Under the pieces are notes generated by a model that had not been told where the DNA came from, searched no databases, and was given only the letters and a program-made list of their open reading frames with translations. Positions 34,612-64,000 of a DNA stretch of 64,000 nt are shown here, piece after piece. How positions within the stretch are numbered: position 1 is the stretch's first letter; the number at the start of each line of letters is the position of its first letter. Origin of the DNA: Anaerosomatales bacterium (GTDB taxonomy: Bacteria; Actinomycetota; Coriobacteriia; Anaerosomatales; SLCP01); the NCBI GenBank assembly GCA_029210645.1, contig JARGFT010000001.1:1035-65034 (forward strand). The letters run 5' to 3'. The translations under genes were made by a program, and so were the position numbers.

Positions 34612-35828
34612 TCAGGCGACGCGCCGAGGTGTCTCGGCGTCCTGTCCGATCTCGGCCGTGAACGGCCGCCCCAGCTTCTTGCAGAGCCGCTGGATCGTGT
34701 CCTTGCCGGTGATCAGCGCGATCGGCAGTCCGCCCGGGGGCTGTAGCCACTGGCCGGAGAGCACGAAGTCCTCCAACCCCTTGATGCGGCCGGTGTGCGC
34801 CATCATCTTGCTGCTCCGGGTAGGGAAGAACGCCATGAATGCTCCCCGGTGCGCGTTACAGTAGCGGTCGTAGGTCGTCGGCGTGGCCACGTCGAGGACC
34901 GTGAGCTTGCCGGCCATCTGCGGAAGCTGCTTCTCGATGGCCGCACGTACCGCCTCGCCCACACGCTCCTTCTCGCGCCGGTATGCGGTGCGGTCCTGTG
35001 CGAGCGCGAACCAGCGATCGACCTCCTCGCCGAAGTGGTTGAGCGCGACGGTGAGCGCGGTGCACCCCGCCGGCGCGAAGCCGGGCTCGTAGCCGTAGTG
35101 GTTGAGCGTGATCTGTGTGACGGTGCTGCCGGCGACCTCGATCGGCTCGCAGTCGAACCGCACCGTTCGCGGCACGTCGCCGACCTCCCCCTCGCAGCCG
35201 GTTTCGACCCGGCCGCCGAGGGTGCGGTACCGCCCGGCCATGCGGTCGGCGAGCGCCTTCGAGCCGCCCACGGGAATCGAGGACTGTCCCTTCGCAAAGG
35301 TCGCGAGCCCGAAGAAGAGGAAGGCGGACGAGTAGTCGCCCGGAGCGAACGTGGCGAACATCTCACGGATGGCAGGATGGGTGAAGCGCTGCGAGTATTC
35401 CTCGAGGCCGACCTTACCGTAGCGCTTCATCACCGCGCCGGCGTCCTTCATCGAGGCGAAGTAGCGCACCTTCTCGATGAGCGACATCATGTCGACGGGC
35501 TTGTCGAGCTGATCGTCGAAACTGCCGAGTTGCCTGATGGTCGCGATGAACTCCTCGATGGCGTCGGCGTCGGCGGGGGAGAGCTCGAGCCAGCTTGCGC
35601 GCAACCGCTCGAGGTCCCGGTAGATCGGCACCGTGCCGCTCTCGTGCTCGTACGTGAGGAACGTCTCGGGGTGGTAGATCTCGACGCCATCGAGCGCGCC
35701 GACGCTCCTCCAGAGATCGTTCATCGGCGTGCCCTCTTTCGTGCCGAGAGCCCGGCGATCCCGCCGCCGATGATGACGATGCTCGGTGCGTCGCCGTTCC
35801 TGGTCGTGCGTGCTGCTGTCGTGCTCAC
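34612..35828 (-). pseudogene. FAD-dependent oxidoreductase (phytoene-desaturase-like, COG1233 type) disrupted by an out-of-frame internal deletion
   Basis: GTG 35828 (GTGA overlap with the TetR stop) opens VSTTAARTTRNGDAPSIVIIGGGIAGLSARKRARR*, which stops at 35723-35721. The remaining 370 codons (MNDLWRSVGAL.. from ATG 35724) are in a different frame. Confidence 0.65.
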
Positions 35829-36418
35829 TGCTGCTCATCCTTTGCCGTGACGTGCTTCCTGGTTGCCTGCATCCCGGCCGCGATCTCCTCGCCCGTTTCG
35901 AGCAGGAGCTCCTCGGCCGCTTTCTCGTCCATCCACGACGGGAGGTGATCGTTTGCCACCATCGCCGAGAGTCCCAACTGGAAGACGCGCATCTTGAGGA
36001 AGAGGCGCCTGCGCGCGCCATCGGTCCATCCGGCAAGCTCAGGATGTGCAGCCATAAGGGGGGCCATCGCGTCCTCGATCTGCTCGTGCGGGGTCATGAA
36101 GTCGTTGGGCTCGAGGGCCATCTCGCGGAAGAGGGCGGGGTAGTCGCGTGCGAACGCGAGCGACGCCTTGCCCATGTTCTCGAAGGGGTTGGGGCCGGTC
36201 TGCGCGGCGAGGAGCTCGCCCGACATGGCCGAGACCCGCTCGACCACGGCCGCGCTCAGCTCGTCGACGGTCGCGAAGTTCTGGTAGATCGGAGCGACCG
36301 AACAGCCCAGGCGCCTGGCGACGGCCCGCGTGGAGATCGCTGAGAACCCGCCCTCCTTGGCGATCTCGAACGCGGCCTCGACGATCGTGTCACGGTCGTA
36401 CTTGGTGGTCGGCGGCAT
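35825..36418 (-). CDS. TetR/AcrR family transcriptional regulator
   Basis: N-terminal HTH (AFEIAKEGGFSAISTRAVARRLGCSVAPIYQNF) and an SD GGAGGT upstream of the ATG. Confidence 0.85.
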   Translation of the reverse strand: MPPTTKYDRDTIVEAAFEIAKEGGFSAISTRAVARRLGCSVAPIYQNFATVDELSAAVVERVSAMSGELLAAQTGPNPFENMGKASLAFARDYPALFREMALEPNDFMTPHEQIEDAMAPLMAAHPELAGWTDGARRRLFLKMRVFQLGLSAMVANDHLPSWMDEKAAEELLLETGEEIAAGMQATRKHVTAKDEQQ

Positions 36419-38013: not shown

Positions 38014-40650
38014 TCAATCAGTATCCTGTCCCACGGCGCAGACGTCTGACAGGTAGATCGCCCCCTGCTGCTTGAGCATGTCCGCCCACAGGAAGATCCA
38101 CCGGCCTCCGAGATCGGCTGCGTCGATCACGTTGATCAGGTCGGAACGGTCGGCGAACTCGGGCAGCATCTGGCCGAGGCGGTTGGGACACTGCTCGATC
38201 AGCTCCGTGTTGAGGATGGAACCCGGGCGCTCCGGCGACACGCCCATGTACCCGATCCCGAGGTCGACGAGGTCGTTGAAGAAGTGCGTGCCCAGTGACA
38301 GGTCGGGCGTCAGTCCCTCGTGCATCCGTGCGATCTCGCAGAGCATGGTCACGTTCTTGATCTGCGAGAGCGTCACGGGGATCCCCAGCTCGGGCATGCT
38401 CGTGCCCCACCTGCCCGGTCCCACCAGGACGGTGGTCTGGAGCCGGTCGGGGTGGTTGGTGATCTTGCCGATGAGACGCGCGACCTCGTGCCGGTCTCTC
38501 GTCGGGAGGGCGCCGTACCGTTCCGGCACGACGTAGACTATGCGATCGACCTCGGTCGCCAGGCTCTGACCGATGAGTGGCCCGTTGGTCTGCAGGAGGA
38601 TGTCTTTGACCGGGATGCGTCCGGGAGACTGGACGTGGATCAGGCGCTCGGCGAAGTGGAACGGCCGACACTGCAGCAGGTTGATCCGGTAGTCCTGCTC
38701 GTCGAGGAAGTTCACCGTGAACTCGATGTCGACCGGGTGCTGGTATGCCTGCGCCACCGTCTGCATCATGTCGCGCATCACCTCGGCGAACGGGGTGGCG
38801 GTGAGCAGCTTCTTGAAGGTAAGGACCGAGGAGAATACGTCCTTGATGCCGGCTTCACGTGCCCGGGTCTCCATCTCGGTATCACGTGAGGCGAACATGT
38901 CGATGGGGAGATCGGAGACGCGGGCCACGTCTTCGAAGTGCCGGGAGACGTGAGCGTTCTCTTCGAGGTCGATCACGTTTACGATGTGCTGGCTGTACTT
39001 GCGGACCTCGTCGGATGAGCCGTCCGGGCGCAGCATCGGTGCGTTGAGCGCGACCACCCGCGTGTAGTCGTCGTCGTGACGGTCGACCGCGCGCGTCCCC
39101 AGGCCGAACACGAGGCGCAGCATGCCGTCAGCGGGGTCGATCTTCTTGCTCCACACGTAGGGGTTGAAGGAGTAACCGACGCCGCCGATGTGCGGGAAGT
39201 ACAGGTCGCCCTGGAATTCGCCGGACACCCGCTGCACCAGCAGCGCCATCTGTTCGTCGCGATGGAGCAGCCCGCGGTGCCTCCGGTAAGAGAGGGCCTC
39301 GACGCTCATCGTGCTCGCGTAGATGGTGCGAACCGCCTCCATGAAGTTGGCGAGGCGTTGTTCGGGATCACCCTGGTTCGCGCAGAACACGCTCTCGTAC
39401 TTCCCGGAGAAGGAGTTGCCGTAGGCGTCCTCGAGCAGGCTGGAGGAGCGCACGATCACCGGTGACTGTCCGAAGTACTCGAGGATCTCCCTGAACTGGG
39501 CGATCGTGCTGGCCGGGAAGCTTCCCGTGTTGAGTTTCTCCCGCAGGTGTTCCGCCTGCTCGTAGAAGTGCTCGGCTCCCCTCAGGTGATGTCGCTCCCA
39601 CCAGCAGTCGTTAAGCACCAGGTAGCTGTAGAAGACGTCGGAGCCCACGTAGAACGAGTCGTGGATTTCGAGTCGTCTCGCGATCTCCGGAGCGTTGCGG
39701 GCGAGGATCTTGCGCGCGAGCAGCATGCCCACCGACTTGCCGCCCACGAGCCCGGTGCCGACCATCCTCTTGCCGATCGCGATGAGATCCTCGAGTTCGA
39801 AGTACTCACTGCAGAGCCGGAAGAGGTCCTCGTTCTCGTCCCGACTCAGAAGCATGCGGATGAGGCGGTCGGTAAGTGCCCGCACATCTTCGCCCGGGTC
39901 CTCTCCCGCGGCGATGCGTGCCTGGACGGACTGGGCCCTCATGAAGGTGCGCGTCCATGGTCCGGGCAGGTCGGCGCTCGGGTCGATCCACGGCTGCGGC
40001 GTAGCCGAGAGGATCTCGGAGAGGACGGTGCTCTGGGTTACCGGGTTGACTCCGTCTTCGTCCCACGAGTGCAGCATGTACATGGTGGAGGAGTGCCGGT
40101 CGAACACCTTCAGGGGCAGGACGTAGAGCCGGTCATCGTTGCGGAAGACGTCGAGGACCACCTGAGCGGTGTCGTGGATGACCCGCGACGCCAGCGGAGT
40201 GGGCACGTCGCGCAGGAGAACGAAGAGCGCCACGGTGTCGTAGTCGTACAGGTACGGGCAGGTCAGCCTGAAGAAGTTGCCGAGCATGCGGTCGCTGTAC
40301 CAGTCGGTGGCCAGACCCGAGAGGCAGTCGAACAGGTAGTACACGCTGTCGTGGCCGTTGCGGTCGATGATCGTGAGGATCTGCGCGATGAACTGCTCGA
40401 AGCCACCACGCGGGTCGAGCTCGTGCACCTCCGCAGGCACGCCCTCCGGAAGCAGCGAGGGGTGGTTGGCGAAGCGGAAGTAGATGAGCTTCCTCCCCGC
40501 CTCCTGCGTGTACGCGCAGTAGCGTTGTGCGAAGGGGAGGAAGTCGTCGAGTCGGTCGGTCTGCAGAACGATGTTGTCGCCTGCCCAGATCCCTTCCAGT
40601 ACCCGGTCGAGCTCGGGGACCCCCGAGCTCAAGTCCTTGCGCTTCTCCAT
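38014..40650 (-). CDS. PEP/pyruvate-binding (PPDK_N) domain protein with an N-terminal RecA/KaiC-like domain lacking a Walker A motif
   Basis: The N-terminus SGVPELDRVLEGIWAGDNIVLQTD is a KaiC-like entry strand but has no GxxxxGK[ST]. The central and C-terminal part carries VGGKSVGMLLARKIL and ATP-grasp-like PPDK_N features. I see no phospho-His (GGxTSHAA) or TIM-barrel domain. Confidence 0.65.
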   Translation of the reverse strand: MEKRKDLSSGVPELDRVLEGIWAGDNIVLQTDRLDDFLPFAQRYCAYTQEAGRKLIYFRFANHPSLLPEGVPAEVHELDPRGGFEQFIAQILTIIDRNGHDSVYYLFDCLSGLATDWYSDRMLGNFFRLTCPYLYDYDTVALFVLLRDVPTPLASRVIHDTAQVVLDVFRNDDRLYVLPLKVFDRHSSTMYMLHSWDEDGVNPVTQSTVLSEILSATPQPWIDPSADLPGPWTRTFMRAQSVQARIAAGEDPGEDVRALTDRLIRMLLSRDENEDLFRLCSEYFELEDLIAIGKRMVGTGLVGGKSVGMLLARKILARNAPEIARRLEIHDSFYVGSDVFYSYLVLNDCWWERHHLRGAEHFYEQAEHLREKLNTGSFPASTIAQFREILEYFGQSPVIVRSSSLLEDAYGNSFSGKYESVFCANQGDPEQRLANFMEAVRTIYASTMSVEALSYRRHRGLLHRDEQMALLVQRVSGEFQGDLYFPHIGGVGYSFNPYVWSKKIDPADGMLRLVFGLGTRAVDRHDDDYTRVVALNAPMLRPDGSSDEVRKYSQHIVNVIDLEENAHVSRHFEDVARVSDLPIDMFASRDTEMETRAREAGIKDVFSSVLTFKKLLTATPFAEVMRDMMQTVAQAYQHPVDIEFTVNFLDEQDYRINLLQCRPFHFAERLIHVQSPGRIPVKDILLQTNGPLIGQSLATEVDRIVYVVPERYGALPTRDRHEVARLIGKITNHPDRLQTTVLVGPGRWGTSMPELGIPVTLSQIKNVTMLCEIARMHEGLTPDLSLGTHFFNDLVDLGIGYMGVSPERPGSILNTELIEQCPNRLGQMLPEFADRSDLINVIDAADLGGRWIFLWADMLKQQGAIYLSDVCAVGQDTD

Positions 40651-40809
40651 CGACGCTCCCGGTGTCGTCAGCAGTTCGCCGCACGTGCGGGCCGGGCCCG
40701 CCGGTGGCACCCGTGCGCGGTTGCTGCGGGCATGAACCTAGGATACACGCGCCCTGGGTGCCCCGGATGTCGGAGCGCGCTGCGACCCCTCGGAAGATAT
40801 CTCGCAGCC

Positions 40810-54699: not shown

Positions 54700-55110
54700 T
54701 TGACTGCCGCCCGGTCGCGTAGTATGAGTGAGCGTATGAGCAGACGTGCATATGATGCCAGTTCGAGTTGTGATGCCACGATCGTCGACCCTGACGCCGT
54801 GGCCCGCGTACTCGAGGCGCAGCCCGGGAGCAACCAGCTTTCCCTGGTGGCAGACATCTTCGCGGCTCTGTCCGACCCCACCCGCCTGCGCATCCTGCTC
54901 GCCCTGTCGCGCGAAGACCTGTGCGTCTGCGACCTTGCGGTGGTGACCGGCGTGAGCTCCTCAGCGGTGAGTCACCAGCTGCGGCTCCTGCGCGACCGAC
55001 GCCTCGTGAGTTTCCGGCGCGAGGGCAAGCGTGCGGTCTATCGTCTCGCGGACAGCCACGTCGCAGCGCTCCTCGCGCAGGGAACCGAACATGCTGGAGA
55101 GCGGGCGTGA
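54700..55110 (+). CDS. cadC: ArsR/SmtB-family metalloregulator (CadC-like)
   Basis: LSDPTRLRILLAL...DLCVCDLAVVTGVSSSAVSHQLRLLR (ELCVCDL-type metal site plus HTH). The start is uncertain (54700 or 54724). Confidence 0.85.
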   Translation: MTAARSRSMSERMSRRAYDASSSCDATIVDPDAVARVLEAQPGSNQLSLVADIFAALSDPTRLRILLALSREDLCVCDLAVVTGVSSSAVSHQLRLLRDRRLVSFRREGKRAVYRLADSHVAALLAQGTEHAGERA

Positions 55111-57344
55111 CCGCGACCCCACAGATGGGTGTTCCTGCCGGTTCAGGTGAGGTTCGCATCCCGGTGCAGATGCCCGACGGACTCGAGATCGGGCAGAGTG
55201 TCGCCCATGCGGCGTACCGGCTGACTGGTCTCGATTGACCCGACTGCGCGCGGACCGTGGCTAAGTCCGTGGAGCAGACCGCCGGTGTCGTCCGGGCTGA
55301 TGTGAACTTCGCGAGCGGCGTCATGGTGCTCGAGTACGATCCGGCTACCGACCCGCGCGAGCGGGCCGTCGCCATCGTTCGCTCGACGGGACACGGCGTC
55401 GAGCCGCTGGGGAGACGGGCCACAGACGCCCGGGACTCCGGGGCCGACTCACACGCGCGCTGGAGCGCTCATGAGGTGGCCACCACCGCGGCCGGGGTGC
55501 TCATCGCTCTCGCGTGGCTCCTCGGCCGAGTCGGCCCGGAATCGGCACAGTGGGCTTCAGTGGCGGCGTACGCGGCTGCGATCGTGTCGGGTGGGTGGCT
55601 CGTGTTCCGCAGGGCGATCGTATCGGTGCGTTCGCGCTCCATGGACATGAACGTCTTGATGACCGTCGCGGTTCTCGGTGCGGCGGGCATCGGTGAGTGG
55701 GCCGAGGGTGCGGCGGTGGTCTTCCTCTTCTCGATCGGCGGGATGCTCGAGTCCCGCTCGCTGGCACGCACGAGGCGGTCGATACGGGACCTCATGGATC
55801 TCAGTCCTCAGGTGGCGCGGGTGCTCAGGGCAGATGTCGAGGCCGAGATCCCGGCCGGCGAGGTCGTTCCCGGTGAGACGATGGTGGTGCGCCCCGGCGA
55901 GAGGGTCGCCCTGGACGGGACGGTCGCGGCCGGCTCTTCGGCGGTCGACGAGTCGCCCATCACCGGTGAGTCGGTGCCCGTCGACAAGTCCGCCGGCGAC
56001 GCGGTATTCGCTGGCTCGCTGAACGCCAGTGGCAGACTCGAGGTCACGGTCACCGCCGCGGCCCCCGATTCCACGTTGGCGCGCATCGTCTTCATGGTTG
56101 AGGAGGCCCAATCCGCCAAGGCCCCCTCCCAGCAGCTCGTGGATCGATTCAGCCGCTACTACACCCCCGTCGTCGTTGCGCTCGCCGTACTCATCGCTCT
56201 CGTCCCGCCTGCGGCAGGCGGCCTCCTCGGCCAGGCGTGGGGAGGGTTCGGAGAGTGGTTCTACCGTGCCCTCGTCATGCTTGTCGTGTCGTGCCCGTGT
56301 GCGCTGGTCATCTCCACGCCCGTCTCGATCGTCTCGGCGATCACGCGGGCGACTCGTGACGGCGTGCTCGTCAAGGGCGGAGTGCACCTTGAGAGTGCAG
56401 CGCGCATCCGTGCCGTGGCGTTCGACAAGACCGGTACGCTGACGTGCGGGATGCCCGAGGTGACTGACGTTATCGCGCTTGACGACGGGGACACGGCTCG
56501 CATCCTGAACGTCGCTGCCGAACTCGAGGCTCACAGCAACCATCCCATTGCTCGAGCCGTCGTCCGCGCGGCCGGTACCGGCAACGGCCGGCTGGCGGTA
56601 TCCGAGTACGAGGACGTTCCCGGCGGGGGAGTCCGGGGCGTAGTGGGCGGGTTACGTTACGCCGTGGGCAACCCGGCGTTCGCCGTGTCCGAGGGGGCCG
56701 TCGCCGCCGAGATCGCACCGGCCGTCGAGCGCCTCGAGAACCACGGGCGAACGGTGCTCGTACTCGTTGAGGACGGAGATACAACGGGCGTTATCGGCGT
56801 GGCGGACCAGGTCCGTCCGGAGGCGCGCTCGGCCGTGACGGAGCTGCTCCGGGGCACCATCGGTCACGCGGTCATGCTCACCGGCGACAACGAGCGGACG
56901 GCTGCTGCTGTCGCAGAGCACGCTGGTGTCGCAGAGTACCGGGCGCGCCTGCTGCCCCACGGCAAGGTCGACGCCGTCAATCAGCTTCAGGCGCGGTACG
57001 GGCCGGTCGCGATGGTGGGAGACGGGATCAACGACGCACCCGCGCTCGCCGCATCCGATCTCGGCATCGCCATGGGGGCGGCCGGTAGCGACACCGCTCT
57101 TGAGACCGCCGACGTCGCCCTGATGTCCGACGACCTCAACCAACTCGCACGCTTCTTTGGTCTGGGACGCAGGACGGTGGCGATCATCCGCCAGAATGTC
57201 GCGGTGTCCGTGCTCGTGAAGCTCGCCGTCCTTATCCTGGCGATGACGGGCACGGCAACGCTCTGGATGGCGGTCTTCGCCGACACGGGAGTCTCGCTGC
57301 TTGTGACGCTGAACGGCATGCGCCTGCTCGCGCGGCGCGCGTAG
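55107..57344 (+). CDS. cadA: P1B-type heavy-metal (Cd/Zn/Pb-type) translocating ATPase, with an in-frame TGA at 55236-55238
   Basis: CPC in TM6 (VSCPCALVISTP), DKTGTLT, GDGINDAP and ADTG in the last TM. The N-terminal HMA fold reads AAYRLTGLD[TGA]PDCARTVAKSVEQTAGV. A GTG at 55257 would give a 695-aa protein without the CxxC site. Confidence 0.8.
55249..55271 (+). promoter_or_regulatory. hairpin 11 nt downstream of the in-frame TGA (candidate bacterial SECIS)
   Basis: CGCGGAC / loop CGUGGCUAA / GUCCGUG forms 7 bp including one G.U. The apical loop starts 17 nt after the TGA and contains GU. Confidence 0.3.
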
Positions 57345-57390
57345 CGTGCAGGAGTACCCTTCACGGGGATGAACATCTCAGAGAAGCCGC

Positions 57391-57783
57391 GTGGATAGAG
57401 CAGTGCGGGTGGAGATGGGGGTGATCGGGGTGGCCGAGGACCAGTTCATGCGCTTCCTCGCAGCGTGGGCGCTCGTCCACGAGACTGCGGACGAGGGATG
57501 GAAAGCCGCTGTAGCGCGTGGAGCCGAACAGGAGACCGGATCGATGGAGGCCGGTCCCGAGGCGTTCGTCGATGGCCTCTCAGCGATGATCGCGGAGGAG
57601 AAAGAACGCCTGAAAGCAGCTCTCGCCTCAGGTGAGGTCGAGGCACCCGGCTCGAAGGCAGACGTTGGGTCGCAGCTCGACGACCTGCTCTTCGAGGTCC
57701 GCGAGTTGCGCGGGCGGCTGGAATCGATGCAGACGACGCTCGATGCGGTCCTTTCCGACGACGAAGACCACGGGGTGAAATGA
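57391..57783 (+). CDS. hypothetical acidic protein with C-terminal coiled coil
   Basis: ORF upstream of and nearly abutting ubiB. The start is uncertain (GTG 57391, ATG 57415 or ATG 57448). I recognise no family. Confidence 0.4.
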   Translation: MDRAVRVEMGVIGVAEDQFMRFLAAWALVHETADEGWKAAVARGAEQETGSMEAGPEAFVDGLSAMIAEEKERLKAALASGEVEAPGSKADVGSQLDDLLFEVRELRGRLESMQTTLDAVLSDDEDHGVK

Positions 57784-57792
57784 GGTCGGCCG

Positions 57793-59154
57793 GTGTCTCG
57801 ACGCACGCGTGTCATCACCCGAACGTTCGCCCGTCACTGGGCTCGCGCGCTTCCGCAAGCGCGGTTCGGGTTCGCCCCGCGCGCCACACGCCGCGCAGCC
57901 TTCGCGCGCGCGACGCGCCTGGCGCTCGAGGACCTGGGACCCGCGTTCATCAAGCTCGGTCAGGTCGCATCGGTCCGCCCCGATCTCGTCCCCCCGGAGT
58001 ACGTGTTCGAGTTCGAGCAGCTCCAGGACCGTGTCCCGCCGCTGCCTGCCGAGAGGATAGCCACGGTCATCCGCCACGAGCTCGGCAGGCCGCTTGCCGA
58101 GCTCTTCGATGACTTCGAAACAGAGCCCATCGCGGCGGCCTCGATCGCCCAGGTCCATCGTGCCAGGCTTGCCAGGGAGGTGCGCCCCGTCATCGGCGAC
58201 GTCATGCCCGCGGGCACTCCTGTGGCCATCAAGGTGGTGAGGCCCGGCGCAGCGCAGGTGATCGCCGCAGATCTTCCGGAAGCGCGCAGACTCCTTTCGC
58301 GGCTCGATCGCCTCGGTCTGTCGCGGTGGATCGACGCGCCGGCGCTGCTCGAGGAGTTTGCCGCTTCGCTTGCGAGCGAACTCGATCTGCGCAACGAGGG
58401 CAGGGTCTCGGACCGCTTCGCGCACGACTTCCGGGACGACGCTTGCATCATGACGCCGAGGATCGCATGGAGCCACACGTCGCGAAGCGTGCTCACGATG
58501 GAGTACGTGGAGGGCTGGCGTCTGACCGAGATCGACGACGCCGCGCGCGCCGGCGTCGACGCGTTCCACCTCGCCTTGCATGGCGCCACGGTGTTCATGA
58601 AGCAGGTTCTCGTACTGGGACGCTACCACGCGGACCTGCATCCCGCGAACCTCTTCGTCACTCCGGACTCGCGCATCTGTTACCTGGACTTCGGCATCGT
58701 CGGCACGACAGAGCGCGAGGAGCGCATCAACATCGCGCAGGTCCTGGCCGCCACCGTGTACGGGGACGCGGACCGCGCGCTGTGCTACTCCGCGAAGCTC
58801 GGCCTCGAGGTTCCGGAGCACAAGCGGGCGGATGTTCGCCAGCGCGTCGGCGAGCTGATGGACCGCACGCTCAACGTCCCGGGCCGGCCCGCCGACGTGA
58901 AGGGGTTCGCCACCGGCTTCCTGTCGGTCATGGCTGATGCCCGCGTACCCATCCCGGCAGGCTACGGCCTGCTCGTCAAGGCGCTCGTCACGGTGGAGGG
59001 GGTCGCGCGCGCGATCTACCCCGACATCGATATCACCAGGGCGGCGAAGCCGTTTGCCACGCGTCTGATCGCGCAGCAGATGATGCGACCCGACAGGATC
59101 GCCGATCGGGTACCTGCGGCACTTCGCGCCGCGATCCGCGAGCTGGTGTCCTAG
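57793..59154 (+). CDS. ubiB: ABC1/UbiB family atypical kinase
   Basis: FIKLGQVASVRPDLVPPEYVFEFEQLQDRVPP, AAASIAQVHRA and HADLHPANLFV motifs. Confidence 0.85.
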   Translation: MSRRTRVITRTFARHWARALPQARFGFAPRATRRAAFARATRLALEDLGPAFIKLGQVASVRPDLVPPEYVFEFEQLQDRVPPLPAERIATVIRHELGRPLAELFDDFETEPIAAASIAQVHRARLAREVRPVIGDVMPAGTPVAIKVVRPGAAQVIAADLPEARRLLSRLDRLGLSRWIDAPALLEEFAASLASELDLRNEGRVSDRFAHDFRDDACIMTPRIAWSHTSRSVLTMEYVEGWRLTEIDDAARAGVDAFHLALHGATVFMKQVLVLGRYHADLHPANLFVTPDSRICYLDFGIVGTTEREERINIAQVLAATVYGDADRALCYSAKLGLEVPEHKRADVRQRVGELMDRTLNVPGRPADVKGFATGFLSVMADARVPIPAGYGLLVKALVTVEGVARAIYPDIDITRAAKPFATRLIAQQMMRPDRIADRVPAALRAAIRELVS

Positions 59155-59161
59155 GCCCTCG

Positions 59162-60001
59162 CTACGCCCCGGACTCCGGCGAACGACCGAGGTCCTGCGC
59201 GTCGTCGAGCGCCTCGTTGAGGCTGCCGCTGCGGTACCCGTGTAGGTCCTGCGCAACGAAGATGAAGCCTGCCTCGCGTACGGCGGATGCGACGAGTTCC
59301 CGCATGTCCCAGGCCGAGTCCATCTCCTGCGGGTCGACCTCGACCCGGGCGACGTCGCCATGAGCGCGCACGCGGAACTGCCGCAGCCCGAGCTGTCGCA
59401 GGGACTCCTCGGCCGAGGCCACGCTCTGCAGCCCGGCCTCGGTGATGGCCTGGCCATACGGGAAGCGCGACGCGAGGCACGCCATCGACGGCTTGTCCCA
59501 GTTGGGGAGGGTCAGCATGCGTGCGATATCGCGGATATCGTCCTTGGTCATGCCCGCTTGCTGGAGCGGGCTGACCACACCGAGCTCGCGCGCTGCGCGC
59601 GAGCCGGGCCGATGGTCGCCGAGGTCGTCAACGTTAGACCCGTCGGCCACGTGCTTCAGGCCTCGGTGATCCGCGACGGTTCTCAGCAGACCGAAGAGCT
59701 CGGTCTTGCAGTGATAGCAGCGGTCGGGCGCGTTGGCACGGAACTGAGGGTCGACGAGCTCGTGCGTTTCGACCTCGATGAGCGGTATGCCGAGCTGATT
59801 CGCTATCCCGCGCGCGTACTCGCACTCGCTCTCAGGATAGGTGTCCGAGACCGCCAGGACCGAGAGGCAGGAGTCGCCGAGTACGGCGTTCGCGGTGAAC
59901 GCAAGGAGCGTGGAGTCCACGCCGCCCGAGTAGGCGACGAGCACGCTCTCCAGCTTACTCAGGTGCTCCCGGAGCAGGTCGTACTTCGCAACTGGGTCCA
60001 C
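59162..60001 (-). CDS. larE: PP-loop ATP-utilizing enzyme, LarE-like (TIGR00268)
   Basis: SGGVDS PP-loop, CYHC pair and the ACLASRFPYG cysteine. Confidence 0.75.
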   Translation of the reverse strand: MDPVAKYDLLREHLSKLESVLVAYSGGVDSTLLAFTANAVLGDSCLSVLAVSDTYPESECEYARGIANQLGIPLIEVETHELVDPQFRANAPDRCYHCKTELFGLLRTVADHRGLKHVADGSNVDDLGDHRPGSRAARELGVVSPLQQAGMTKDDIRDIARMLTLPNWDKPSMACLASRFPYGQAITEAGLQSVASAEESLRQLGLRQFRVRAHGDVARVEVDPQEMDSAWDMRELVASAVREAGFIFVAQDLHGYRSGSLNEALDDAQDLGRSPESGA

Positions 60002-60100
60002 GGGGTCTCCTCACGCGTTGAGACCGAAGTATAGCCCGAGCGGCTCATCGAGGGGTATGTACACGGGTGAACGCCACCTACTCCGACCACGGGAGGACCC

Positions 60101-62098
60101 ATGGCCGACCAGAGCGCCGATAGCGGTATCGAGCACCTCGCAGGTGACGATGCAGTCGTCCCGCCCTCGCCGGACTTCGCGGAGAACGCGATCGTCAGCG
60201 GCATGGAGTGCTATCGGGAACTCTACGAACGTTCGGTGGAAGACCCCGACGGCTTCTGGCTCGAGATGGCACGCGAGCACCTCGTGTGGATGAAGGAGCC
60301 CACCGTTGGTCTGCAGGGTGGCTTCGAGAACCTCGACTACACGTACTTCGCCGACGGGACCCTTAACGTCTCGGCGAACTGCCTGGATCGCCACCTCGCG
60401 ACCTGGAGGCGCAACAAGGCCGCACTCATCTGGGAAGGCGACGACGGCTCTTCACGCACCTACACCTACCAGCAGCTGCATCATGAGGTCAGCCGCTTCG
60501 CCAACGTGCTGCGCAAGAAGGGCATCGAGCGTGGCGACCGCGTCGCCATCTACCTGCCTATGATTCCCGAGCTGCCCATCGCGATGCTCGGCTGCGCGCG
60601 CGTCGGCGCGATCCACTCGGTCATCTTCGGCGGCTTCTCCTCTTCTGCACTGCGGGGGCGCATCCAGGACTGCGGTGCCAAGCTGCTGATCACCGCCGAC
60701 GAGGGCATCCGCGGAGGCCGGAAGGTGCCTCTCAAAGCCAATGCTGACGAAGCGCTCTTCGAGTGTCCGAGTGTCGAAGCGTGCGTCGTGGTGAAACGCG
60801 GTGCCGGTGATGTCGACATGGAGCCGGGACGCGACACCTGGTGGCACCAGGAGGTGACCGCCCCCGAGGTTCGCAGGCCGTGCGTGCTCGAAGAGATGGC
60901 TGCCGAGGACCCGCTCTTCATTCTCTACACCTCCGGGTCGACCGGTACGCCCAAGGGCGTGTTGCACACCACCGCGGGTTACCTGCTCTACTCGGCGCTC
61001 ACGTTCAAGACGGTCTTCGACTACCGTGACGAGGACGTCTTCTGGTGTACCGCAGATATCGGCTGGATCACCGGGCACTCCTACATCGTCTACGGTCCGC
61101 TCGCTGCGGGCGCTACGGCGCTCATGTTCGAGGGCGTGCCGACCTATCCGGACCCCGGTCGCTTCTGGGCGGTCGTGGAGAAGTACCGGGTCAACTCCTT
61201 CTACACGGCTCCCACGGCGATCAGGGCACTCATGCGTCATGGCGAGGGGTGGCCCGAGCGTTACGATGTGTCCAGTCTGCGGCTGCTCGGCACGGTGGGC
61301 GAACCCATCAACCCCGAGGTCTGGCAGTGGTACCGGCGAACGATCGGGCGCGACGAACTGCCCGTGATCGACACGTACTGGCAGACCGAGACCGGCGGCT
61401 TCCTGATCACGCCGTTCCCCGGTGCGACACCGCTCAAGCCGGGTAGCGCGACCGTGCCTTTCTTCGGCGTGACGCCGCGGGTGCTTCGCGAGGACGGCAG
61501 CGACGCCGATCCCGATGAGGGAGGGTACCTCGTCGTTCGCAATCCCTGGCCGGGTGCCCTGCGCGGCACGTGGGGCGACCCCGATCACTCGCGCATGCGC
61601 GAGGTCTACTTCGAGCGATTCCCCGGGGTGTACTTTACGGGCGATGGCGCCCGTGTGGACAAGGACGGCTACTACTGGCTCCTCGGCCGGGTGGATGATG
61701 TTATCAATGTCTCCGGACACCGGATGGGCACCGCCGAGATCGAGAGCGCGCTCGTGAGCCACGATGCGGTCGCCGAGGCTGCGGTCGTTGGATTCCCCCA
61801 TCCGGTCAAAGGCGAGGGGATCCACGCCTTCGTGCTCCTGCGTGACGGGCACCACCCGTCCGAGGACCTCGCGACCATCCTCTCCGGACACGTCCGCAAG
61901 CTCATCGGACCCATCGCTAAACCCGATCACATCCAGTTCGCTCGCGACCTGCCCAAGACCCGCTCGGGCAAGATCATGCGCCGCATCTTGCGCAAGCTCG
62001 CGGCGGGCGAGCGTGAGATGGAGGCGTTCGGCGATCTGACGACCCTGGCCGATCCGCGGGTCGTGAAGGACCTTCTGGAGGGCGCCGACACCTACTAG
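60101..62098 (+). CDS. acs: acetyl-CoA synthetase (AMP-forming)
   Basis: [19 protein letters not shown] and the C-terminal [15 protein letters not shown] motif, 665 aa. Confidence 0.95.
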
Positions 62099-62104
62099 CG
62101 TGTC

Positions 62105-62686
62105 CTAGGGAGTGCGCGGGTCCCAGAAGACGTCGCCCGAGCCGTACCGGTGATTGACGTAGCGGGCCATCGTGAAGAGCAGGTCCGAGAGCCGGTTGAT
62201 GAACTTCCGCACGCGAGGGTCGACCTCGTCGGGAGCCTCCGACACCAGGTCCATGACGCGCCGCTCGGCTCGACGCACGACGGTGCGGGCGATGTGGAGC
62301 CGGCACGCCCCCTCGCAGCCTGCGGGGAGCACGAAGTGATCGATCTCGCCTGCGGCCGCGGTCAGCTCGTCGATCCACGACTCGAGACGGGTGATGTCCT
62401 CGACCCGGATCGAGGGTCCTGCCGTTGATGCGGCACGCACCTCGGCAGGCGTGGCGAGCAGGCTCGAGCAGTCGAAGAGCCGGTGCTGTACGAAGTCGAG
62501 CATGGTGTTGAGACGCACGTCATCACCGGCGGCCAGCCTGATGGCGGCCCTCGCGTGCCCTACGCAGCTGTTGGCCTCGTCGACGGTGCCGTACGCCTCC
62601 ACGCGCGAACTGTTCTTCGCGATGCGCGAACCCCCGACCAATGAGGTCTCTCCGGCGTCGCCGGTGCGGGTGTAGATCTTACTCAT
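62105..62686 (-). CDS. pduO: ATP:cob(I)alamin adenosyltransferase, PduO type
   Basis: MSKIYTRTGDAGETSL N-terminus and the helical bundle; 193 aa. Confidence 0.9.
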   Translation of the reverse strand: MSKIYTRTGDAGETSLVGGSRIAKNSSRVEAYGTVDEANSCVGHARAAIRLAAGDDVRLNTMLDFVQHRLFDCSSLLATPAEVRAASTAGPSIRVEDITRLESWIDELTAAAGEIDHFVLPAGCEGACRLHIARTVVRRAERRVMDLVSEAPDEVDPRVRKFINRLSDLLFTMARYVNHRYGSGDVFWDPRTP

Positions 62687-62780
62687 GTCAGCCTCCCGGA
62701 CTCGGACCGTCGAGCACGACTATACCGTGTCTGCGGAGTGTGGCGGGTGCCCCGCAGGACGCGGGGCTCCACAGTGGGTC

Positions 62781-64000
62781 TCAGAGGGCCCGCAGACGCA
62801 TGGAGAGCTGGCCGAGAGCGCCGGCGGTCATGCCGGTGGGACATCCGAGTCGCAGGGTGTCCTCGGTCCATCCGGCGCGTGACGTAGCGGTGAGTGAGCG
62901 GACGTCGAGTCCGCTCTCGGAGATCGCCCGTGCGATGTCGTAGAGCAGTCCGACGTGATCCGGCGCGCGGACGTGCAGAAGTGCTCCACGGGCGTCCTCC
63001 TCGATCCGTGCCTGGATGTCGCCGATGACGCGTGGCGCGTAGAGCCGTCTGCGTTCCGACAGCCGAACGGAGAGCGCCAGACGCCCCGCGAGCGACGCCG
63101 ACAGCATGCGCTCGAAGCGACTCCAGGTCTCGGCACTCACCGGCGCGAGGGTCGCGGAGGTGACGACGAAGCTGTCGAGCGCGATGCCATCCCGCGTCGG
63201 AACGGAGTTCGCCGCCAGGATGTCGAGCCCTGCCAGCGCGAAGGTACCCGCGAAGATGGCGAGCAGGCCGGGGCGGTCGGGTGCTGCGACGTTCACGCGG
63301 TACGACGCCGGGATAGGTCCAGCGCCGATCTCGAGTGCGTGGGTGCCCGGCGTTCGGTCCGCGGCCACGCGGGCGGCGAGGTCTGCCAGGTGCTCACGCG
63401 CAGTGGGGCTGCCGGCTCTCAGGGCACGCGCCTCGTCTGCCGAGAGGGCAGCATAGAGCCTGCTGACGAGGGTGGCCAAGAGGTCGGCGTGCCACGCGCT
63501 CCACGCACCCGGACCGGTCGCACGGGAGTCGGCAACCGTGAGCACGTGGAGCGGAGCGAGGAGAGACGCGTCACCGAGGGTGCGGGCCACCGCGTCGATG
63601 TCGGCGGGCTCGTCGAGGTCGACGCCGGAGGCGGCCGATGCCAGAAGCAGGTGGTGTCCGACGAGTGCCGAAACGGTTTGGGCCTGGCCGGCGTCGAGCC
63701 CGAAACGCTCGGCCGCCACCCGCGCCGTGGGTGCGCCCCGCGCGGGGTGTCCGGCTCCGGGTGTGGCCTTTCCGACATCGTGGGTGAGCGCGGCGACGGT
63801 CAGGAGGCGAGCGTCGCCGATCCGGAGCGCGGATCCGGAAAGCACCGGGTCGTCGGCCGTGCCGGCTGCTGCCGAAGCGATGATGTCGGCCGTGCCGACC
63901 GCGCATCTCAGGGAGTGCGCTCCCACGGTGAGCGCGTGCGCGATGCCGGGACGGCGCAGCCACATCAGCGAGCTCATACCGGGGACGAGGTGGTCGAGCT
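62781..64000 (-). CDS. glnD: [protein-PII] uridylyl/adenylyl-transferase GlnD, C-terminal part (HD plus two ACT domains); 5' end lies beyond the window
   Basis: HDVGK HD motif and two ACT-like repeats (VAAPDRPGLLAIFAGTFALAGLDI, VRAPDHVGLLYDIARAISESGLDV). The frame is open to nt 64000. Confidence 0.75.
   Translation of the reverse strand, partial: LDHLVPGMSSLMWLRRPGIAHALTVGAHSLRCAVGTADIIASAAAGTADDPVLSGSALRIGDARLLTVAALTHDVGKATPGAGHPARGAPTARVAAERFGLDAGQAQTVSALVGHHLLLASAASGVDLDEPADIDAVARTLGDASLLAPLHVLTVADSRATGPGAWSAWHADLLATLVSRLYAALSADEARALRAGSPTAREHLADLAARVAADRTPGTHALEIGAGPIPASYRVNVAAPDRPGLLAIFAGTFALAGLDILAANSVPTRDGIALDSFVVTSATLAPVSAETWSRFERMLSASLAGRLALSVRLSERRRLYAPRVIGDIQARIEEDARGALLHVRAPDHVGLLYDIARAISESGLDVRSLTATSRAGWTEDTLRLGCPTGMTAGALGQLSMRLRAL

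Follow-up and report, generated by a model that had tools for sequence, protein, structure and literature searches.

A conserved in-frame TGA, probably a selenocysteine codon, at the first metal-binding cysteine of a Zn/Cd-type P-type ATPase from an actinobacterium

Background

Cation-transporting ATPases in which selenocysteine (Sec, U) replaces the first cysteine of a CxxC motif are an already known selenoprotein family, described from 2005 onwards, when the joint criterion of Sec/Cys pairing and a stem-loop led to the identification of two transporter selenoproteins in Carboxydothermus hydrogenoformans (Wu et al. 2005, PMC1287953). UxxC selenoproteins of the cation-transporting ATPase E1-E2 type were also reported from an Olavius symbiont and from the GOS data sets (PMC1976440, PMC2398784), and a survey in 2016 counted 32 such genes in 25 organisms (PMC5029168). 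The gene considered here, a further member of this family with an actinobacterial host, lies in a 64,000 nt stretch of DNA, termed the window, from an Anaerosomatales bacterium (assembly GCA_029210645.1, contig JARGFT010000001.1, positions 1,035 to 65,034 of the forward strand); it encodes a heavy-metal efflux pump whose reading frame is interrupted by a TGA codon at the first cysteine of its N-terminal metal-binding site. A first-pass annotation of this DNA, made from the sequence alone, proposed Sec as one reading of the codon and stated that UxxC variants of metal-binding domains had been described, which the literature bears out (PMC1287953, PMC2398784, PMC5029168, PMC13188914).

The prototype of the family, CHY0860 (ABB15669.1) of C. 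hydrogenoformans, is likewise a P1B heavy-metal ATPase with a predicted Sec in first position of UxxC and a stem-loop just after the UGA. The position of Sec in the two proteins is equated by the published UxxC motif rather than by direct alignment, and the hosts differ, that of CHY0860 belonging to the Clostridia and that of the window gene being a Coriobacteriia/Anaerosomatales-like actinobacterium. The same exchange of Sec for a metal-ligand Cys is found in the MerP selenoprotein, a putative mercuric transport protein (CHY0565/ABB16073.1) and CopZ-family selenoproteins (PMC2398784, PMC13188914); these are small soluble or MerT-like proteins, whereas here the exchange is in a domain of a P-type pump. 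The bacterial Sec insertion sequence (SECIS) of the Escherichia coli fdhF type is also a hairpin within the coding sequence immediately 3' of the UGA, with G-U in its apical loop; the candidate hairpin described below has no sequence similarity to it, and fits the consensus model of PMC13188914.

With the ZntA and CadA P1B-2 ATPases (1MWY and 1MWZ for ZntA, 2AJ0 for CadA, 4UMV at full length) the pump shares the order of a heavy-metal-associated (HMA) domain followed by an E1-E2 core with CPC and DKTGT motifs. An ArsR/SmtB-type regulator encoded upstream is a further feature in common with this group. Like ZntA, the pump has an Asp ahead of the first ligand (G-x-D-C/U), and this Asp, in the arrangement G-L-D-U, presumably resembles the ZntA site of 1MWZ. 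Unlike in ZntA and CadA, where the first ligand is Cys, it would here be Sec. No description of the UxxC ATPase family in Anaerosomatales was found in the literature, nor any paper linking Anaerosomatales or Coriobacteriia to the Sec machinery.

Results

A metal pump gene in frame across a TGA codon

TGA 55236 is best explained as a conserved Sec codon that replaces the first metal-binding Cys of a Zn/Cd-type export pump, a reading to which a probability of about 0.88 is assigned on sequence grounds. The Sec proposal of the first-pass annotation is supported by the conservation of the TGA, by syntenic orthologues with Cys, by selection on both sides of the codon and by a hairpin resembling a bacterial SECIS (bSECIS) that is specific to the TGA forms. 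The features of the gene are as follows.

55107..57344, + strand: P1B-type (Zn/Cd/Pb-like) ATPase gene, 745 residues including the proposed Sec at residue 44, with stop TAG at 57342-57344 (from translation)
55096..55101, + strand: Shine-Dalgarno-like GGAGAG, 5 nt before GTG 55107 (read from the sequence)
55227..55247, + strand: metal-binding loop G-L-D-U-P-D-C of the HMA domain (from translation, Pfam and HMA structure alignments)
55236..55238, + strand: in-frame TGA, proposed Sec codon (residue 44), at the first Cys position of CxxC
55257..55259, + strand: GTG used as the pump start by gene callers, equal to Val51 of the full-length protein and inside the proposed SECIS loop (from the list of open reading frames, ORFs)
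56292..56300, + strand: transmembrane CPC metal-site motif (position computed from translation)
56424..56438, + strand: DKTGT phosphorylation motif (position computed from translation)

As the first-pass annotation had it, GTG 55107 overlaps the stop of the upstream regulator ORF (GTGA; ORF 54700-55110), 43 open codons lead to the TGA, and the frame continues beyond into the 695-codon ORF that begins at GTG 55257; GGAGAG is likewise present upstream, but 6-11 nt from the start rather than the 8-13 nt given. The read-through translation runs ...AAYRLTGLD*PDCARTVAKSVEQTAGVVRADVNFASGVMVLEYDP..., in DNA of 67% G+C, and an exact look-up returned no identical protein on record for the 695-aa ORF.

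Substitution of Cys for the stop gives a Pfam HMA (PF00403) match of 31.5 bits (cut-off 24.8) over residues 38-96, corresponding to profile positions 3-61 of 62, so that the domain spans the TGA, starting six residues before it and extending a further 52 residues after it. In alignments with the solved HMA domains of ATP7B and Bacillus subtilis CopA, the stop falls on the first Cys of GMxCxxC, and ZntA (1MWY) and CadA (2AJ0) were also among the solved domains matched; the claim that the stop sits exactly at the first metal-binding Cys is thus upheld by both the profile and the structures.

Pfam finds, in order, HMA, E1-E2_ATPase and HAD hydrolase (Hydrolase) domains in the read-through protein. 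Among the NCBIfam models, that for heavy-metal P-type ATPases (TIGR01525) scores 595.4 bits against a cut-off of 346.25 and that for the cadmium-family subgroup (TIGR01512) 511 against 313.5, while the copper model (TIGR01511), at 383.8, lies under its cut-off of 397; with TIGR01512 passed and the copper model below threshold, the predicted pump is of the P1B-2 (Zn/Cd/Pb) subgroup. The ZntA equivalog models NF033775 and NF008262 are far under their cut-offs (520 against 1240 and 595 against 1005), so the name CadA denotes likeness only.

Conservation of the TGA codon and its exchange with Cys

Fourteen other loci have a TGA at the homologous codon; their pumps share 42-95% protein sequence identity with that of the window:

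L174, TGA form: 95%
L163, TGA form: 94%
L164, TGA form: 79%
L081, TGA form: 78%
L165, TGA form: 73%
L166, TGA form: 70%
L167 and L168 (duplicate loci), TGA forms: 65%
L169, TGA form: 62%
L004, TGA form: 60%
L003, TGA form: 59%
L082, TGA form: 52%
L091, TGA form: 44%
L010 (metagenome-assembled genome, MAG, of Bacillales), TGA form: 42%

The relatives of the window genome are metagenome-assembled Coriobacteriia, one record naming Anaerosomatales, and L081, L082 and L091 came from a metagenome scan that yielded at least three useful TGA loci; across these sources the codon recurs in independent assemblies from NCBI, JGI, ENA and Logan. Comparison of the codon among orthologues, as suggested in the first-pass annotation, also returned a Cys codon (TGC or TGT) at the same position in three syntenic orthologues (L170, L171 and L172). 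In 126 HMA alignments covering the site, six TGA loci included, every confidently aligned homologue has Cys or TGA, other residues (D, G) being confined to two weak alignments. The TGA forms and their syntenic TGC/TGT orthologues have on this evidence the makeup of a classic Sec/Cys pair.

The same codon appears to have left its mark on protein databases. All 28 protein clusters at 65% identity or more start after the U site, as do 37 further clusters at about 59-68% identity, with starts at query residues 51-64 in 56 of these 65 and over residues 51-73 among callers overall. These starts are read as the footprint of a TGA because that is what was found wherever the DNA was checked; with 65 of the 120 nearest protein clusters truncated in this way, the predicted Sec form is the dominant state of the pump in this actinobacterial clade.

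Two of the more divergent loci extend the range of contexts in which the codon is seen: L010:5974 (MAG contig DULJ01000022; low-G+C host; 42% identity) has a TGA at the first HMA Cys in GFS*ASC, and L091:790 (metagenome contig Ga0265296_1023550; 45% G+C; 44% identity) has one in GLD*PDC. Separately, the 768-aa protein P0051, from a 1.8 Mb contig, begins partway through a first HMA domain, as the TGA forms do, and contains a second, full HMA domain with GLDCADC, which, read from the protein alone, suggests that tandem Sec-type and Cys-type metal-binding domains exist in some pumps.

Selection on both sides of the codon

Ratios of non-synonymous to synonymous substitution (dN/dS), computed by the Nei-Gojobori method on diverged pairs, are 0.13-0.39 upstream of the TGA; 80 codons of the extended N-terminal region in the relatives give 0.17-0.39, and the 60 codons immediately beyond the TGA give 0.08-0.27. 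Purifying selection therefore acts ahead of the TGA as it does after it. In every case the 18 nt that separate the TGA from the annotated GTG code for P-D-C-(A/T)-R-(T/A), with an invariant second Cys. The part of the protein ahead of the Sec-bearing HMA domain differs between relatives, with an extra CxxC ferredoxin-like domain in some and just 16-20 residues in others; despite these differences the frame across the TGA is unbroken in all of them.

The window genome itself has lost part of this region.

55180..55181, + strand: junction of an in-frame 162-nt (54-codon) deletion (from the translations of L163, L164 and the window, and blastn)

Limited to the window genome among those sampled, and with a 3-nt microhomology at its junction, the deletion takes out the first CxxC ferredoxin-like domain (VRCSEC...GLG) that is kept in relatives of 94-95% identity; blastn alignments of L163:1323-1616 and L174:1-302 with the window break at 55178-55180. 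The Sec-bearing HMA would therefore be the sole N-terminal metal-binding domain of the window pump.

A candidate SECIS hairpin

The DNA following the codon can form the hairpin described in the first-pass annotation.

55250..55270, + strand: candidate bacterial SECIS hairpin, with stem 55250-55255 paired to 55265-55270 and loop 55256-55264 (CGUGGCUAA) starting 17 nt after the UGA

An extra C-G pair (55249/55271) in the window genome gives a 7 bp stem with a 9-nt loop, folding as had been claimed, with an energy of -8.8 kcal/mol. The bSECIS rules, coded from the legend of Fig. 2 in PMC13188914, ask for a spacing of 16-37 nt, a loop of 3-9 nt, a stem of at least 4 bp, a G followed by G or U at the loop start, a G in the first two loop positions and a minimum free energy of -7.5 kcal/mol or lower; the window hairpin, with its spacing of 17 nt, stem of 7 bp and loop of 9 nt starting CGU, falls within them. 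Hairpins within these rules were found in 11 of 13 TGA forms as against 12 of 93 Cys forms, a comparison that overstates independence because the TGA forms are related to one another.

The pattern of synonymous substitution was compared in the set of seven orthologues formed by the window, L163, L164, L081, L165, L004 and L082 (52-95% protein identity). The codons GCG CGG ACC GTG ... AAG TCC are identical at every four-fold site in all seven, while nearby third positions vary freely, with three variants of the GCN codon in the loop, four of the next Val codon (GTN) and three of the Pro codon (CCN) before the stem; the frozen bases are those of the stem (positions 15-20 with 30-35, the U of UGA being 1) and of the loop start. 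In L166, L167, L169 and L003, where the encoded amino acids are different, the 3' arm has moved and a 5-bp stem (16-20 with 26-30) forms in four out of four with 100% pairing, including one compensatory pair that is A-U in two and G-C in two. The loop start C-G-U-G lies 17 nt past the UGA in all 11 actinobacterial TGA forms. The orthologous Cys forms have other synonymous codons at the frozen sites (GCA/GCT, CGC/CGT, ACG), and GUG at the loop position is present in one of five of them compared with 11 of 11 actinobacterial TGA forms. The hairpin is, by these comparisons, conserved and specific to the TGA forms. As to co-variation, a check proposed in the first-pass annotation, the synonymous sites of the stem are frozen in a manner specific to the TGA forms, and just one compensatory pair was seen, not at a significant level.

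Hairpins are also present at a similar distance in the remote TGA forms L091 and L010, but they differ from these and lie outside the strict G[G/U] loop rule. The 11 actinobacterial sequences do not fit one common consensus structure (81.7% paired, no covariation) because the 3' arm differs between the two subgroups, and Rfam gave no match near the site. One Cys form, L001:2162-2209 (TGC; Coriobacteriia MAG JAUVQN010000037), has a strong hairpin right after the Cys codon (-22 kcal/mol; z = -2.4 relative to shuffles), which may be the remnant of a SECIS from before a Sec-to-Cys conversion, or may have arisen by chance in G+C-rich DNA.

Discussion

Points against Sec decoding

At the level of sequence, everything by which members of the UxxC ATPase selenoprotein family are recognised was found in the window gene. 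Several points nevertheless weigh against decoding of the TGA as Sec. A review of 2026 lists the UxxC ATPase family as 'predicted with high confidence', with no member experimentally verified (PMC13188914). Searches of the window and of all the loci by tblastn with E. coli SelA, SelB and SelD and by ARAGORN revealed no selA, selB, selD or tRNA-Sec in the 64-kb window or in about 200 kb of the relatives' flanks, too small a sample to tell, and no second selenoprotein gene was seen in the window or these flanks, where antisense artefacts were the sole candidates. The window hairpin is no more stable than dinucleotide shuffles of its sequence (z = +0.96; equal or better folding in 173 of 200 shuffles), and the z-scores of TGA and Cys forms across loci are not significantly different (p = 0.10); because energy alone does not discriminate, the significance of the hairpin rests on the comparison with relatives. 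There, the main stem is invariant across its orthologues, and the compensatory pair in the other subgroup is not significant among four sequences, being equalled in 87 of 500 shuffles.

Alternative explanations

A very unlikely alternative is leaky termination independent of Sec, in which a near-cognate tRNA, for Trp or Cys, would read UGA-C at low level, perhaps with stimulation from the hairpin, and so give a full-length pump that contains no selenium. UGA-C is a weak termination context and is present in all the actinobacterial forms, and such a mechanism would agree with the failure to find genes of the Sec machinery in the window or the fetched flanks; the C after the UGA is, however, the first base of a conserved Pro codon. 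Leaky reading does not account for a stop placed exactly on a ligand Cys, with Cys codons as the sole alternative in confidently aligned homologues; it is by this pattern that Sec/Cys exchange is recognised. A metal site with Trp in place of a ligand would be lost, and the spacing and loop motif of the hairpin are as expected for SelB binding.

Even less probable is the production of two proteins with no recoding: a short N-terminal peptide, of 43 aa in the window and 95-99 aa in relatives, that terminates at the TGA, and a pump that starts from GTG 55257 and has no metal-binding domain. This is exactly the split given by gene callers, the GTG is at this position in 11 of 11 actinobacterial TGA forms, and N-terminal metal-binding domains are dispensable for transport in ZntA-type pumps. 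The split would nonetheless fall within the metal-binding loop of the HMA domain and leave no complete domain in either piece, and the pieces always share one frame with a gap of exactly 18 nt. Gene callers place the start differently among relatives (query residues 51 to 73), no good Shine-Dalgarno sequence precedes GTG 55257, the distant TGA forms L091 and L010 lack a start codon there, and the G-U of a SECIS loop would explain the GTG just as well. Both this model and leaky termination are made unlikely by the exact alternation of Cys and TGA and by the SelB-type hairpin.

A recent nonsense mutation of TGC or TGT to TGA, or a pseudogene, such that the pump is dead or made only from GTG 55257, is hardly credible: a single base change would be enough and the public annotation of relatives does start the pump at this GTG, but this alternative, raised in the first-pass annotation, is refuted because 14 further loci, down to 42% protein identity, have a TGA at this very codon and are too divergent (42-95% identity) to be artefacts of one sequence, with an upstream segment that is in frame and under purifying selection and 18 nt between TGA and GTG that encode the invariant PDC(A/T)R(T/A), second Cys included. 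A reassigned TGA (as Trp or Gly, for instance) and a sequencing error can equally be dismissed, since TGA is an ordinary stop elsewhere, ending about 18 of 41 composition-supported ORFs of the window, among them UvrB just after its C-terminal UVR motif, and since the codon recurs in independent assemblies.

A model for a proposed selenocysteine-containing pump

Under Sec decoding, positions 55107-57344 would constitute one gene for a P1B-type heavy-metal efflux ATPase of the Zn/Cd/Pb subgroup, probably translationally coupled to the upstream ArsR/SmtB-family regulator gene. On reaching codon 44 (UGA 55236), the ribosome would decode it as Sec, with the hairpin at 55250-55270 acting as a SECIS that recruits SelB-GTP-Sec-tRNASec. 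The predicted product has an N-terminal HMA domain with the site G-L-D-U-P-D-C instead of G-x-D-C-x-x-C, and one of its two thiolate ligands would therefore be a selenolate, expected to have a lower pKa and to be a softer ligand than a thiolate. In a regulatory or delivery domain, the selenolate would bind ions of the Zn/Cd/Pb type along with the second Cys and perhaps also the Asp.

The position of the GUG raises the further idea of a selenium-dependent switch between two products, which is considered unlikely. With selenium present, the UGA would be decoded and the pump would carry its selenolate metal-binding domain; with selenium absent, translation would stop and re-initiate at the GUG, giving a pump that lacks the domain and has different kinetics. 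The GUG in question lies in the SECIS loop 18 nt past the UGA and is invariant in 11 of 11 actinobacterial TGA forms, but this invariance is equally accounted for by the SECIS loop consensus, and the GUG has no Shine-Dalgarno sequence before it.

Genomic neighbourhood and annotation

Two small genes flank the pump.

54700..55110, + strand: ArsR/SmtB-family metalloregulator gene ('cadC' in the first-pass annotation), with a Pfam HTH_5 match at 5.9e-16 and a stop that overlaps the pump start
57391..57783, + strand: small conserved ORF of 130 aa (114-123 aa in relatives), directly 3' of the pump and before UbiB

The true start of the regulator may lie downstream of TTG 54700. The name 'cadC' is not sustained, as only the generic ArsR/SmtB model (NF033788) passes, at 96.8 bits against a cut-off of 55, while the CmtR equivalog fails (44.6 against 150); the regulator has a CVC motif, which is shared with ArsR. 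A regulator gene precedes the pump in all syntenic relatives, and the order seen in the window, a phosphoenolpyruvate (PEP)-utilising enzyme (PPDK), ArsR-family regulator, pump, small ORF and UbiB, was shown for 10 of the 14 TGA loci (L167 and L168 being counted separately); in L169 a major facilitator superfamily transporter stands in place of the PEP-utilising enzyme. The small ORF is next to the pump in nearly every syntenic relative and absent in L171; it has no NCBIfam match, and neither it nor its counterparts in relatives have a Pfam match. The wider neighbourhood consists of housekeeping genes (PolA, ribosomal protein S1, UvrB).

Public gene calls divide the pump into a 95-99-aa 'HMA' ORF ending at the TGA and an ATPase of about 695 aa that has no metal-binding domain, as at L163:1323-3722, L164:9689-12091 and L174:1-2408 and in the 65 of 120 protein clusters noted above. 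These split calls are a systematic mis-annotation across the clade.

Some further observations concern other parts of the window. Contig L173 (GCA_032251415.1, JAVVDZ010000011.1), found via the acetyl-CoA synthetase of the window, is 99.9% identical to window positions 56295-64000, and does not contain the region of the Sec codon because it begins inside the pump gene at 56295. Two genes of the PEP-utilising/PPDK_N type are present, at 38014-40710 (- strand) and 52505-~54650 (- strand); the 898-aa product of one matches the PPDK_N domain only, and the second gene is conserved as the one to the left of the regulator-pump pair. A 474-aa ORF at 34612-36036 (- strand) has coding-like composition and no Pfam match at E <= 1e-5.

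Conclusions

Addition of this gene changes no concept, the family having been in the literature since 2005. Once the Sec codon is recognised, the window gene regains its 745-residue product, and dozens of public entries are corrected. The pump belongs to one of the few selenoprotein families with Sec at a metal ligand rather than at a redox-catalytic Cys, and the clade, with its many natural Sec/Cys orthologue pairs in identical context, would provide a convenient system for the role of a selenolate in metal sensing or delivery.

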